Part shown: piece by piece, positions 7,816 through 57,007 of the stretch
Position numbering within the stretch: the first letter of the stretch is position 1
Layout of the letters: the number at the start of each line of letters is the position of its first letter
Source: Eledone cirrhosa
Lineage: Eukaryota
Direction: 5' to 3'
NCBI GenBank assembly: GCA_964016885.1
Contig: OZ024747.1
Coordinates: 7,998,001-8,062,000, forward strand
DNA: 64,000 nt
Program-made: the position numbers and the translations under genes
The notes under the pieces: generated by a model
Told to the model about the DNA's origin: nothing
Database searches by the model: none
The model's input: the letters and a program-made list of their open reading frames with translations, nothing else

Positions 7816-8018
7816 TAGGGAAATGTATGACCCCGACGGCAGAGCTCAAGCCGTTTCGACGGCTATTTCTGGACCCCAGAGTTCAGAAATAGCCATTGAA
7901 ATGGCTTGAGCTCTGTCGTCGAGGTCATACATTTTCCTATTACCCACTCTACTACCCTAAGTATTGAGTACTCTGGTGTGTTATGGTCCATCTGGTTCCT
8001 TACCACAACTCCTTTGTT
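7816..8018 (+). mobile_element. Hairpin-plus-tail element (family H2) in (AT)n
   Basis: Inverted repeat ~7816-7940 around GAGCTCAAGCCGTTTCGACGGC, then tail ACCCACTCTACTACCCTAAGTATTGAGTAC shared with 36984, 48290 and 48791 copies. Confidence 0.75.
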
Positions 8019-8528
8019 ATATATATATAGTATTTATGTAAATATATATATAGTTTATTGGTGTGTAATGTTTAGTTACTATTGGTTCACCAGTTTGAGT
8101 ACTCCATGCAATGTGTGTCTGGTTGTCGATGTGGTATTGATTGTTTGGTATTACACCATAGTCGGTAGCCTAAAGTAACAGAGTGGTAATACTCATTATT
8201 ATAGCGTCGGACAGCATGGTTAGTATCATAGAGTTATGTCCCTTTACGTTCTGTGCTTAAATCCGCTGAGATTGGCTTTGCTTTTAATCCTTACGGAGTC
8301 GATAAAATATAGTACCCGTAATACACTGGGGTTGATTTAGTTGACTTTTCCCACCCAAATATTTCTGGTATTGTGCCTATAATAGATATCATTATTTTCT
8401 TGTATATATATATATATATATATATATGTATCTTTTGTGTGTTGTATGTATGTGTGTATATGCACGTATGTGTGTGTGAGTGCATGTGTGTAGGGAAATT
8501 TTACATTAGATATTTTGTTATTATTATA

Positions 8529-8812
8529 ACCGCCGAGGTTAACTTTGCCTTTCATCCTTACGGGGTCGATAAAATAAAGTACCAGTAATGCACTGGGATA
8601 ATTGCTGGCCTTGTGCCTAACGTAGAAACAATTATTTGGCATAATAATTGTTTTTACTTTTGGCACAAGGCCAGCAATTACCAAGTAAATTACTGGTACT
8701 TTATTTTATCGACCCTGTAAGGATGAAAGGCAAAGTTAACCTCTACGGGATTTGAACTCAGACCGTAAAGGGACGTAACTCTGCTGGAAAACATGGCGTC
8801 CGACCCTCCACC
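8529..8812. mobile_element. Two family-A SINE pieces tail-to-tail (8529-8632 plus, 8643-8812 minus); another diverged copy at ~8203-8385
   Basis: Same Meta-like core and GGCCTTGTGCC tail in opposite orientations. Confidence 0.8.
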
Positions 8813-10104
8813 AGACAAAATAACCAAACAGCAATGGAAGGTCTTTTTCTGCTATAATAATTTTGGTGCCGTCAACTCATGTTCTCTCAGTTTGTCACAG
8901 ACTTTGCCAGCAGCAAGATGGAACCCCCGAACCATGTGGTTGTGAATCAAACTCCTTAACCACAGAGCCATATTTGCACCTATTTATTTATTTATTTATG
9001 AATGATAGTGTTGTTATTTCCAGGTTTCCAGTGGGCCAGACTCTGATTCACTGCATTTCTGATATATTTCAGTGATAAGGAAGTTTCTGGAGCTTGATCT
9101 ACCTCAGGGGACTCCATTCATTCTTGTTTTTCTCACTGATGTATAACCGCAAAAGATATATGTATATGTGTGTGCGTGTGTGCGGGCATGTATGTGTGTG
9201 TGTGTATATATATATATATATATATATATATATATATATATATATATATATAGATATATACATTAGTAATAATAAATACAAAAACCAAAATACAATACTA
9301 ATGATATAAATGTGTGTGTATGTGTATATATACATTTATATATATATATATATAGAGAGAGATATATATAGATTTATATATAGACACATACACACATATC
9401 TAATATACATTTATGAAAGTTTGTGCGTATATCCATTTCTCCTCCCCCCCTCTCTCATGTTTATGTACCAATCTTTTGCTCCTCCCCCTCAACCTCACTT
9501 CAGACTGTGTTTTACTACTCTTTCCATCACTCATTGGCATTCATTTATCATTTGCTCTCTCTCTCTCCCTCTTTTTCTCTCTCCTCCCCTATCTCTCCCC
9601 TCTTTTACTCTCTCCCCCTCTCTCATTTTCTCTTTTATATCTCCCCTATTTCTCCTCCCAATACTCATTCCTGTATAATTGATTCCCTCTTTATCTCCCA
9701 CTCTCTCTCTTTTAATAATTTGGAGCAATTTCTTCAATTGTCATTTAAACAATTTATAGTACAAGATGGTGATGTGGGGTGGTGTGGTGGTGTGGTGGTG
9801 GTGTGGTGGTGTGGTGGTGTGGTGGTGGTGTGGTGGTGTGTTGGAGGTGGGGGAGTGGTAGAGGTGAAGGTGTGGTAGGTGTTGTTGTTGTGGTGGTGGG
9901 GTGGTGTGGTGGTGTGGTGTTGTTGTGGTGGTGTGGTGGTGTGTTGGAGGTGGGGGAGCGGTAGAAGTGAAGGTGTGGTAGGTGTTGTTGTGGCGGTGGT
10001 GGGGTGGTGTGGTGGTGTGGTCTTGTTGTGGTGTGTTGTACATTGTGTGGCGGTGTGTGGTGTGTTGTGTGTTGATATGTTGGTGTGGAACGGTTGAGGT
10101 GATA

Positions 10105-53725: not shown

Positions 53726-54084
53726 TGGGCACATGTGTGTATATATGTAAGTGTGCATGTGCATGTGTATATATGCACATGCAGTATACATTATGTACTT
53801 AAATGAACCAGAACAAAATAAAAGTATGTAGCATTCTTCAAAATCAAAGGAAGTAGATGTAATTTTCAGTAACAAAATGGCGTCTTTGAAACAAAAAAGC
53901 TCAGTGTGTTTTGTGGTTTCAAAGACTTTATGCTCATCCTGTACAGTGTGTTTCATATATCTCAGTACCTTAACCCTTAACATCCTGTAATGATTTAGCA
54001 GAATATATACCAAAATGTGGTTTGTTAATTCAAATGTTTATAGTATCTTTACTAGTGGACAGTTAATTGTGAAAATATGCAGTA

Positions 54085-54313
54085 TTAACCCTTTAGCATT
54101 TACATTACTCTATTTACACTATTATATTTTCACGGTAAAGGCTTTATCTCGCATAATTATCTCACATAATATCGAATCTATGAGATTTTGATGTTATTTA
54201 TTTTGAGAACAATACCTTAACATCAGTATGAGTTGCCAGTTACAGCTGGTTTGAACAGATTGAGATGAGAGAATTCTGGCCAGATACGACCGGTTTAAAT
54301 GCTAAAGGTTTAA
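54085..54313 (+). mobile_element. piggyBac-like MITE, complete
   Basis: TTAACCCTTTAGCATTTAC ... TAAATGCTAAAGGTTTAA. Confidence 0.85.
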
Positions 54314-56820
54314 AGACTTAAATTTTTAATGTGATGCGGTCATAGTGTTGTTTTGTATTTTTCTAGAATGTCTTTTTAATGCTGTTTCATGTGGTACAGG
54401 TTATTAAGAGTTAAATATGGTAGGTTCTTCTTAACTATATGTTTATTGTGCAAAAGTAATCCCTGAGAAATATTTTCAAGTCAAAACATGGAAATAGTTT
54501 TGTGGCCTTGTCTGAAATTAGATCCTGTCAATGGTGACTTGAAGTGTTTCTATATAAACTGCCTGTATGATGTCGGGGTGGGAGTGGGGAGGGACCAAAT
54601 TATTGATTTTTATAGACATCTATAACTTCCTTTCATGGTCCCTCCGGTTACTATCAAACCTACAATCACCTTGTGTCAAAGAAAACTGGTAGAATTATCC
54701 ACTTGAATGGATATTCCTAGCTTCAGTTAACATCCATGAAAATAAGACATTAAGTATTCTCCAACTATCTTTAAAATATTTCATTTGATGACAGATTATC
54801 CCTTACAAAATAAATGGAATGTTTTCCTTCCTCCCTATATTATTAGTGCCCCTAAATTATTGTCATTTGTTAACTTCTTTCATTACTATATTTCTAATGA
54901 AAGATACTGCCTATGTTGATAATAACCAAGAATTTGGTAGGATATAGTATCATAACTAACATTCTCATTAAGATTGTGTTTGGAATATTACTTAACAATG
55001 GTTCTTGTATAAAAATTATAATTGAAACATTTTTGTTTTAGATTAATATAAACACTTTAATCCTTTCATTACCAATTTCTAATAAAAGACATTTACTATA
55101 ATTTTCAATTAATTCTGAAAATAATCAAGAATTTGTGAGGGATTTAGCGATATGATGGGTTTTCTCATTAAGCTGGTGTTTGGAACATAACTTAACAGAG
55201 ATTCTTATATTAAATTATGATAGAAGGTTTTTAGATAAATATAAACACTGTTTAACGTCCATTTTTCTATTCTAGCATGGGTTAGACGAGTTGTCCTGTT
55301 GCGAGACAAGCCAGATCAAATGACCATGTCTTTCTCATACAGAAATGTTTCTTGCTTGGTTTCTATGGCTGGAGGCTCTTCCTTTACAGTGTGGACTGGG
55401 TGCTTTTTGTTATGTCACCTACATGATCACTTTACAGTGTGCTTGGTGCTTTTTGAAATGTCTCCAACATGACCATTTTACAGTGTGGACAGGGCGCTTT
55501 TTGTCATGTCCCCAACATGTTCACTTTACAGTGTGTACTAGGCACTTTTTGTCAAGACACCTACACAATAACTTTAAAGTGTGGACTGGGCACATTAATA
55601 AAAACTTTAAAACGAATAGGTTAGTATCACAGAACTAGGGGTAGTTTCATGCAGTTTGGTATGAAAACAGTTTAAAGAAAACTGCCAGAATCATCTACTT
55701 CAATGGATATTCCCAGCTTCAGTCAACATCCATACAAATAGGCCATTAGATATTCTCAAAATATCTTCTAAATATTTCATTTGATAAAAGATTATCCCTT
55801 ATGAAATAAAGGGAAGACCCCCCCCCCCCACTCTCCTATCTCTCTCCCCGCTCTCTGTATGTTAATACTGCTCCTAAATTGCTGCCATTTATTTGTTAAT
55901 GCTTTTCTTATCTCCACTACATTAGCCCTAGAAAGATGGCTGAATGCCTACTGCTGTTGCTGTTGTTGCTGTTGTTCTGGGTGTTGCTGGTGTTGTTGTT
56001 GTTGTTGCTGCTGCTGGTGTTGTTGGTGTTGTTGTTGCTGCTGTTGCTTTCCTAGTTTTAATGACAATAAAACTGGTGTCAACACATTTCAGCATAAAAC
56101 AACAACAGCAACAATAACAAGACAACAACAACAACAACAACAACAACAACAACAACAACAACAACAACAACAACAACAACAACAACAAAAACAAGAGTAA
56201 CCTTAGCAAGAAATAAACATAAAAAAGAAGTAATAGGAAAATAGAGAGAGTAAAAGTAAAAAAAGGAGAGTGACAAATAGAAAGACTAGAACAAAGAGAG
56301 AGAGATAGATAGATAGATAGATAGATAGACATATATATATATATATATATATATATATATATACACATATATATGCATATATATATCTATATACATACAT
56401 ATGCATATATCTATCTATATATATATATATATGTATATATATACCTGTCTAACCCATGCTAGCGTGGAAAATGGACGTTAAACGAAAATGATGATGATGA
56501 TATATATATATATATATATGTATATATATATATATATATATATGTATATATATATATATATGTATATATATATGTATATATGTATATATATATATATATG
56601 TATATATATGTATATATATATGTATATATGTATATATATATGTATATATGTATATATATATATATATGTATATATATGTATATATATATGTATATATATA
56701 TATATATATATATATATATGTATATATGTATATATATATATATATGTATATATATGTATATATATATGTATATATGTATATATATATATATATATATATA
56801 TATATATATATATATATATA

Positions 56821-57007
56821 AGTTTATCCCGGGTTCAATCAGGGGTAATCACAGTAAGGTACTCAATACGTAGCAGAGTAAAAATATTTTATATAGAAAT
56901 GGCTTCTACAGGAATAAAACTGTTTCATTCGGGAGAAATCATTAGGAAGTTTCCTGATGATTTCTTCTGAATGAAACAGTTCTAGTCCTGTAGAAGCCAT
57001 TTCTATA
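56821..57007 (-). mobile_element. Hairpin-plus-tail insertion in (AT)n with a partial CTGATGA...GAAA motif
   Basis: Arms ~56891-56948 and ~56951-57008 (TATAGAAATGGCTTCTACAGGA / TCCTGTAGAAGCCATTTCTATA). Confidence 0.6.

Follow-up and report, generated by a model that had tools for sequence, protein, structure and literature searches.

How do several sequence families come to carry the same mirror-like shape in the same kind of target? Eight loci in a stretch of 64,000 nucleotides of the Eledone cirrhosa genome (contig OZ024747.1, positions 7,998,001 to 8,062,000; "the window" means this whole stretch) raise the question, each with inverted arms side by side at one end and, opposite them, a unique tail. 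The initial annotation attributed the shape to nascent cDNA that snaps back, primes its own second strand and joins the AT target. The loci are short insertions of endonuclease-bearing Penelope-like elements (PLEs) into (AT)n, and we consider it likely that the mirror shape comes from both nicked target strands priming a cDNA of their own, the two cDNAs being joined head-to-head.

All eight loci were found again in our analysis. The 40.7 kb of unmasked window sequence hold 10 hairpins with a score of at least 18, these eight and two further ones at 8599 and 52644 that have no AT flank; there are none in any of the eight dinucleotide shuffles that served as the null. Palindromes are also enriched at AT tracts: an arm ends within 20 bp of (AT)≥5 in 6 of the 10 hairpins (1.15 by random placement, P=0.0002) and within 50 bp in 7 (2.06 by random placement, P=0.0006). 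The right-hand AT tract of the locus at 56821-57015 is short. The sequences had been called unrelated. Several families are indeed present, but the loci at 7816, 36984 and 48290 belong to a single one, so there are six families rather than eight.

That family, A (Hydra-type PLE), is represented on the plus strand by stubs at 7815..8018 (a diverged subfamily; inverted arm 7815-7871, sense arm 7884-7940, spacer 12), 36982..37143 (arms 36982-37021/37026-37065, spacer 4) and 48290..48484 (hairpin 48290-48343/48353-48406, spacer 9), each with a tail of 78 nt. In the first, both arms extend about 60 nt upstream of the internal start site. In the second, short arms meet at an internal repeat and the sense arm is longer, which fits either model. 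In the third, the inverted arm has 63 nt and the sense arm 53 nt. A longer family A copy, absent from the initial list, lies on the minus strand at 48787..49350 and has a tail without an adjacent inverted arm. The family B stub (Hydra-type; 17150..17591, plus strand) has a hairpin at 17150-17317/17332-17499 with a spacer of 14, an inverted arm of 185 nt of native sequence, a sense arm of 169 nt, a tail of 90 nt and a hammerhead core at 17405-17445. In the family D stub (Hydra-type; 49535..49685, plus strand; arms 49535-49563/49575-49603, tail to 49685), the spacer of 11 consists of sequence native to the tail-less arm. Of the two arms, the tail-less one is longer at 17150, 48290 and 49541. The arms of the family E stub (Neptune-type; 52376..52579, plus strand; 52420-52450/52451-52481) meet at 52450/52451 with a spacer of 0, become longer if a 16-nt gap is allowed in the left arm, and are accompanied by a tail of about 36 nt. 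The stubs of family C (39945..40091; tail 39945-39987, arms 39988-40036/40043-40091, spacer 6) and family F (56821..57015; tail 56821-56883, arms 56884-56948/56951-57015, spacer 2) lie on the minus strand with the tail on the left, the latter with a hammerhead core in each arm, one of them substituted. Family G has a PLE end at 7631..7759 (plus strand) with a hammerhead core and no inverted arm, and further copies at 15707-15830 and 40131-40206 (both minus strand).

The outer ends of the insertions are two fixed element positions, E1, at the tail end, and E2, which in family A lies 78 nt upstream; both border on (AT)n. Genome-wide, family A has 17,259 exact junctions of (AT)n with E2, 15,707 of E1 with (AT)n and 297 read-through junctions; family B has 2,583 junctions. 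In families A and B only, and as read by eye, a TA-like match of about 3 nt is present at both start sites. Most copies, tens of thousands, are stubs of 120-450 bp, and at least 7 of 30 tail-selected copies are without an adjacent inverted arm. The centre of the insertions varies, and with it the arm length within a family: 79 copies have 76 distinct junctions. The idea of one integration mechanism across several families holds up. Any target-site duplication is masked by the (AT)n target. The assembly has some mirror duplications around long (AT)n tracts (L082/L083, L173/L174).

To judge from the coding sequences associated with their ends, all six families are stubs of PLEs, C and F being linked more weakly. 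A 3,543-bp tandem unit that carries family A ends encodes an intact ORF of 719 aa with a reverse transcriptase (RT) plus GIY-YIG at the C-terminus; this ORF has 1,698 homologues, and Pfam recognized GIY-YIG in one of the four scanned. On four ORF pieces of families A and D Pfam gave no match, and elsewhere weak matches only. The ends of families B and D are continuous with Hydra-type RT and GIY-YIG ORFs. For the family E ORF, Pfam returned GIY-YIG (E=0.0012) and RVT_1 (E=0.09), and the broken copy L301 has a visible DKG motif, a Cys linker ahead of GIY-YIG and CCHH in the endonuclease; by such motifs family E may belong to the Neptune clade. Longer copies of family C contain a hammerhead core along with fragments of PLE protein, part of an RT and an endonuclease-like C-terminus: RT motifs run into the pLTR in L304, the endonuclease-like C-terminus precedes the pLTR in L061, and Pfam found no RT match. 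Family F, also seen in fragments only, has a short degenerate Cys-linker piece in L298/L303. The continuity of ends with RT and GIY-YIG ORFs in families A, B, D and E bears out the earlier comparison with PLE ends that carry an inverted partial pLTR.

The family A ORF has RWR (for RWK), DKT, a CxCx5C linker and CxxC plus CxH in the endonuclease end, with no CCHH; families B and D have DKT and/or CxCx5C in common with the Hydra motif set. By the motif list in PMC8557442, family A would fit the Hydra clade, with which it shares the C-terminal GIY-YIG, DKT, CxCx5C, CxxC/CxH and the (TA)n target. It differs in its unit of 3.5 kb (generally <3 kb in Hydra) and in its hammerhead, which has a U3-A8 core and a loop II of 37-39 nt. 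PMC3846280 and PMC8557442 describe strong 5' truncation, an inverted truncated pLTR at the 5' end, a one-sided tail that may be on either side, partial tandems, a pLTR hammerhead, a (TA)n target and a TATA box plus initiator in the pLTR as traits of endonuclease-bearing (EN+) PLEs. All of these are present here as well, and the pLTR/partial tandem organisation is seen in 3,543-bp units arranged in tandem and in inverted arms whose tail lies on one side or the other. Tails are longer here (36-90 nt vs 30-40 nt), and, unlike the described units, the copies are mostly short stubs whose arms end at family-specific common points.

Hammerhead calls in this study rest on motif and folding: among the matches listed for the window and two hammerhead regions, Rfam gave no hammerhead, only sub-threshold miRNA-type hairpins. 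Cores are recognizable by motif in families B, C, D, F and G. In family A, 32 of 44 cores are a U3-A8 variant with three helices (motif and folding), and C3-A8 is unpaired in 11 of 44; no core was seen in family E. A tail hairpin common to all families was not found, such hairpins being weak in A, B, D and F and little developed in C and E. Non-LTR retrozymes, in which non-coding units follow one another in tandem and each has a hammerhead, were rejected because the window copies are single head-to-head stubs and most family A stubs hold half a ribozyme only.

Where, then, do the arms stop? In 72 short copies no arm reaches beyond -64, and ends fall at -50...-65 in 54/72 and 47/72. At -60 there is an initiator-like site, preceded at 29 nt by a TATA-like box, and this first shared stop is likely the transcription start. 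The second, at -19, is the predicted hammerhead cut site. It has 374 pattern matches, vs 61 at -16 and 31 at -21, the only two control positions, which have slightly different prefixes. Among the matches checked, 30 of 40 were true stops. In the 26 true stops with a partner arm, the partner ends exactly at -19 in 10 and beyond -21 in only 2; microhomology from the C-run at -19 may inflate this peak, 13 of the 26 partners being shorter and several joined there. Ribozyme structure was rejected as the cause of the main stop, whose position with respect to the core differs between families: within loop II in family A, a few nt before the core in F and about 75 nt before it in B. At L319 a sense-oriented U6 piece is fused through its 3' end to the -19 site; a genome-wide search for recurrent U6 chimeras at the cut site found only that one locus.

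We propose twin target-primed reverse transcription followed by end-joining, in the following course. The GIY-YIG domain would cut both target strands, and one 3'-OH would prime at E1 and the other at E2, on sense RNA and helped by the TA-like match of about 3 nt. Because the start sites lie near the transcript 5' end, most cDNAs would end by run-off at the hammerhead cut, after 19 nt, or at the transcription start, after about 60 nt. Rarer cDNAs would become long by using the pLTR copy at the 3' end or by a jump to a different RNA position. The two cDNA 3' ends would be joined through 0-2 nt of microhomology or a few added bases. In vitro, a PLE protein does cut both strands and extend them, starting at two internal sites that bound the tail (PMC11167929). 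The two cDNAs would share one source, perhaps a single RNA molecule. Of 192 comparisons at subfamily sites, 185 show concordant arms; the idea that an insertion draws on two different RNA sources was rejected because the arms are discordant at only 7 of 192 diagnostic site pairs, vs 46-60% expected. Long arms are paired with long arms (10/2/0/72, Fisher P=2e-11, with eight values of the table assigned by hand, from BLAST or by eye). Arm concordance and this coupling are predicted equally by snap-back.

Under snap-back, the tail-primed cDNA folds back, copies to E2 and joins the other target end, and asymmetry arises from later deletion of the centre. This would explain why subfamily variants, and two private variants, are common to both arms, why long arms are coupled with long arms, why L319 has the same U6 piece in both arms, and why 39 of 76 family A copies have a tail arm at least as long as the other arm. 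Snap-back needs the whole inverted arm within the tail-bearing strand, and hence longer tail-less arms speak against it. In family A the tail-less arm is longer in 37 of 76 copies, the tail arm in 26, and 13 are equal; for differences of at least 10 nt the counts are 19 vs 5, although this main sample was selected for an inverted arm of at least 25 nt, which inflates the class with the longer tail-less arm. In family B the tail-less arm is longer in 11 of 20 (11/8/1). Later asymmetric deletion of palindrome centres could also produce this class. At 5 of 30 ORF-junction loci (L221, L238, L240, L242, L243) the E2 strand runs off and jumps to +172...+298, so that the tail-less strand has ORF sequence beyond the tail end which the tail strand lacks. 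Tail-less arms measuring 1.4-2.5 kb occur together with tail arms of about 70-200 nt. In five copies of the family A sample the sense part starts inside the tail, and thus there is no palindrome. Microhomology at 44 insertion-free junctions is 0-1 nt in 29, which leaves little to prime a fold-back. Nor does snap-back account for one fixed E2 base across 17,259 copies, E2 being an RT start site in vitro (PMC11167929). As the rule that it was proposed to be, snap-back is unlikely, and the copies speak for two cDNAs that were primed separately; snap-back may apply to a minority, such as the copy at 36984.

Both routes might also operate, with twin priming common and a minority of copies, in which the tail arm is longer and inverted microhomology spans several nt, made by fold-back. 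At least 3 nt of microhomology at 8 of the 44 insertion-free junctions, and the joining of 36984 and L130 at an internal repeat with 6 nt, would suit such a mixture. We find it quite improbable, since microhomology-mediated joining of two cDNAs leads one to expect the same joints and a second route is not required.

Earlier accounts (PMC3846280, PMC8557442) explained the head-to-head layout by antisense self-priming or left it open. Self-priming with antisense RNA as the template, put forward in PMC3846280 (Arkhipova et al. 2013) for this same layout, yields a head-to-head palindrome and would explain intron retention too. It is very unlikely here. The stops match sense-strand signals (TATA/initiator, predicted sense hammerhead cut), the U6 piece at the one locus is joined in sense orientation, and the in vitro template is sense RNA (PMC11167929). 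DNA elements with a fixed hairpin (Helitron, foldback, MITE), or artefacts of assembly in AT tracts, of which the mirror duplications noted above might be a sign, are scarcely credible given the lack of a fixed hairpin among 76 distinct centres; in families A, B, D and E the ORF links refute them, in line with the initial view that these are neither MITEs nor Helitrons.

L1 twin priming also uses primers from both target strands and leaves an inverted 5' segment, with junctions that show microhomology, deletion or added bases. The two proposed target-strand primers, the inverted 5' segment and the junctions are similar here. In L1, however, the internal site at which the second primer anneals varies and overlap of the segments is mostly absent, whereas here that site is constant and one stretch is copied twice, which makes a palindrome. 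The Poseidon element PAc of Anolis, as far as it is described in PMC11167929, resembles our elements in its two internal RT start sites that delimit the tail, in the cutting and extension of both target strands, in its AT-rich target and in an ORF that starts near ribozyme and tail. It differs in that reads that end at the ribozyme cut were not found, whereas arms here stop at the predicted cut, and the TA-like match of families A and B at both start sites is a further difference. The corresponding passages of that paper do not use two-strand extension to explain inverted pLTRs.

The element class and its layout are already known; the copies offer a large genomic test of two PLE questions that PMC8557442 and PMC4209133 state as open, the origin of tandem and inverted ends and the in vivo role of the hammerheads. 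More than 17,000 recent copies of one family, with both ends and the central joints readable, resemble a natural insertion assay. They link genomic structure to the 2024 in vitro result (PMC11167929) and name two candidate RNA 5' ends, at about -60 and -19. We offer a wider reading only tentatively, as one that may well prove wrong: double priming on one RNA would be obligatory in PLEs, an RT dimer would start at two fixed internal sites, strong-stop-like cDNAs would end at the transcription start or the hammerhead cut, and full length would need a template jump. If this were true, a double-priming reaction would have left one signature in all EN+ PLEs, consisting of inverted pLTR and one-sided tail, and the stops at -19 would be a genomic record of the PLE hammerhead cleaving in vivo, with the cleaved RNA serving as template.

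The hairpin stubs are a real feature and belong to a class that is already known. All eight loci that the initial annotation described in the window (G000:C7:7998001-8062000, in a genome of 3.0 Gb) carry (AT)n, an inverted arm, a short spacer, a sense arm, a unique tail and again (AT)n. With simple repeats masked, the window contains 10 hairpins with a score of at least 18, these eight included; none of that score appeared in any of 8 shuffled windows. The proposed association with AT tracts also holds: six of the 10 hairpins have an end no more than 20 bp from an (AT)5 tract, where random placement would give 1.15 (P=0.0002). 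That the loci are unrelated is only partly true. There are several families but not eight, since the loci group into six families of Penelope-like elements (PLEs): family A at 7816, 36984 and 48290, and families B, C, D, E and F at 17150, 39945, 49541, 52370 and 56821, respectively. Excerpts from two publications give an inverted truncated copy, a one-sided tail and a (TA)n bias as the PLE layout (PMC8557442; PMC3846280).

The window holds other repeats as well. Copies of one abundant SINE, in tandem and head-to-head (4431-5516, 8539-8802 and 22485-22643), account for the non-AT hairpin at 8599. More hammerhead-like cores and one non-AT hairpin (13291-13327, 49416-49457 and 52644-52708) are probably the ends of further PLE families. 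A 52-bp minisatellite of about 50 copies (37150-39717), its unit made of (AT)n and a short unique piece, begins exactly where the tail of the stub at 36984 ends. Two LINE reverse transcriptase (RT) frames (50733-51839 and 62244-63971) are what we take to be an RTE-like and an L1/Tx1-like RT; the presumed RTE-like one is a 5'-truncated copy that starts inside an (AT)n tract.

Family A ends run on into an ORF at 297 exact junctions. This ORF contains RWR, DKT, CxCx5C, CxxC and CxH, which are among the published marks of the Hydra clade (PMC8557442). From families B and D the sequence continues into related ORFs (35–50% identity), and from family E into a broken ORF of Neptune type. The links are weaker for family C, which is connected with RT motifs and an endonuclease-like terminus, and for family F, connected with a short Cys-linker piece. 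Hammerhead cores are present in the terminal repeats (pLTRs) of B, C, D, F and G, the last being PLE ends that lack an inverted arm. In family A the core has a three-helix fold; 32 of 44 copies have U3-A8, 11 have C3-A8 and the last one has a different base. U3-A8 is a PLE hammerhead variant already described, as an extract of PMC4209133 states. Rfam scans gave no hammerhead match for the cores of any of these families.

Both outer ends of family A lie at constant positions. Genome-wide, the tail end E1 is joined to (AT)n at 15,707 places, and (AT)n is joined to the same internal base E2, 78 nt upstream, at 17,259 places (2,583 E2 junctions in family B). By eye, the element's own sequence at both start sites goes on with about three TA-like bases in A and B. 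Arm length, in turn, varies within a family, as had been supposed. Of the 90 E2 places listed first for contig C1, 79 have a tail within 1.5 kb, and 76 of these 79 family A junctions are distinct. After 3 poorly aligned copies were dropped, the tail-less arm (the E2 strand) is longer in 37 of 76, the tail arm in 26 and neither in 13; for differences of at least 10 nt the ratio is 19 to 5, although selection demands a 25-nt inverted arm and so favours the tail-less-longer class. In five of the 76 the sense part begins within the tail. From 30 family B places, 22 with a tail, 20 copies were kept (one duplicate and one poor alignment dropped), with the tail-less arm longer in 11, the tail arm in 8 and 1 equal. 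Bases were added at the junction in 32 of the 76 family A copies, and 36 of the other 44 show microhomology of 0–2 nt. When 30 copies were selected by their tails, the inverted arm lay within 120 nt in 18 and kilobases away in 2; seven had no adjacent inverted arm and 3 were ambiguous. Rare copies (L040, L195 and G000:C1:168137813-168138197) bear two tails, one at each end, or seemingly none, and the two tails of L040 differ more than its arms.

The arms of a copy match in 185 of 192 comparisons at three subfamily sites, where random pairing gives 46–60% mismatch. Long arms pair with long ones (long/long 10, long/short 2, short/long 0, short/short 72; P=2e-11; eight values of this table were entered by hand). 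Hence a single kind of RNA is the template of both cDNAs, which would mean either that strand displacement let one molecule be copied twice or that each cell had one active source. Five discordant copies at polymorphic site -13 (L012, L021, L025, L129 and L154), too few to weigh, show T in the inverted arm against C in the sense arm.

Neither concordance nor pairing discriminates between twin priming and the snap-back first proposed, in which tail-primed cDNA folds back and copies itself into the inverted arm. Such a copy is limited to the content of the tail-primed strand, and the proposal seems mostly wrong because the E2 strand of some copies holds ORF sequence absent from the tail strand. 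Among 30 loci chosen for a pLTR-ORF junction, five such jump copies (L221, L238, L240, L242 and L243) have an E2 strand that reaches the usual stop, resumes inside the ORF at +172 to +298 and then runs back again; their tail strand starts at +78, without this ORF sequence. Three more loci (L250, L251 and L253) have tail-less arms of 1.4–2.5 kb opposite tail arms of about 70–200 nt. A tail-less arm could come to look longer through later loss at the palindrome centre, but a deletion brings in no new sequence. Judged from their sequence, the E2 strand in these copies is therefore a separate reverse transcript. This agrees with in vitro work in which a PLE protein cut both target strands and extended them from two internal sites delimiting the tail (PMC11167929). 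Elsewhere, mirror duplications of 394 bp (L082/L083) and 1.3 kb (L173/L174), centred on long (AT)n, double whole stubs and could reflect AT DNA, which is self-complementary, folding back either in vivo or during assembly.

We consider twin priming a rather probable route to stubs, given the ends, junctions, ORF links and jump copies observed. Both strands would be nicked in (AT)n and cDNA primed at E1 and at E2, perhaps on the same molecule; each cDNA would run off on reaching the 5' end of the RNA, make a jump or draw on the 3' copy of the pLTR. The two cDNA 3' ends would be joined, by whatever pathway, and then filled in.

Where the cDNAs stop points to particular RNA ends. None of the arms in 72 short family A copies extends past -64, with 54 and 47 of the respective arms ending at -50 to -65; a TATA-like box lies 29 nt ahead of an initiator-like site at -60. 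The start of 21 of 28 family F copies lies no more than 12 nt from the hammerhead core, by eye directly behind a TATA box and initiator-like site, and in family B the arm ends concentrate between -165 and -185. We infer that these main stops are RNA 5' ends; published work already places the start of transcription in the upstream pLTR (PMC6765202; PMC2377424). A second family A stop, at -19, coincides with the predicted ribozyme cut (374 pattern matches vs 61 at -16 and 31 at -21). Thirty of 40 fetched matches were true stops and 10 indels or diverged copies; 26 of the true stops had a partner arm, and of these partners 10 end precisely at -19 and 1 at -21, 13 are shorter and 2 are longer. A C-run at -19 may attract junctions, which leaves the height of the peak uncertain. 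In a single family A stub, L319 (G000:C1:148857730-148858150), each arm is joined at -19 to the 3' end of U6 snRNA (Rfam E-values of 1.5e-4 and 6.8e-4, both below threshold); no other locus in the genome has U6 at the predicted hammerhead cut. For L1, U6 has reportedly been described as ligated to RNA with a 5'-OH end, and by analogy such a ligation would fit L319; the joint is also compatible with snap-back. A 55-bp family A ORF piece makes up a long array of tandem repeats at the 5' end of another insertion (L247, unit positions 1695-1752), and at G000:C2:356030079-356031901 a pLTR-ORF junction recurs every 299 bp, as if run-off and jump had been repeated.

Antisense self-priming has been put forward for PLEs, according to a portion of PMC3846280. 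The terms 'twin priming' and 'strong stop' did not occur in the PLE papers retrieved from a collection that takes in few subscription papers, and a search by title returned no paper on these octopus families; the double-priming model may have been stated earlier elsewhere. Our analysis contributes evidence from genomic copies that favours double priming and cDNA stops at the predicted ribozyme cut.
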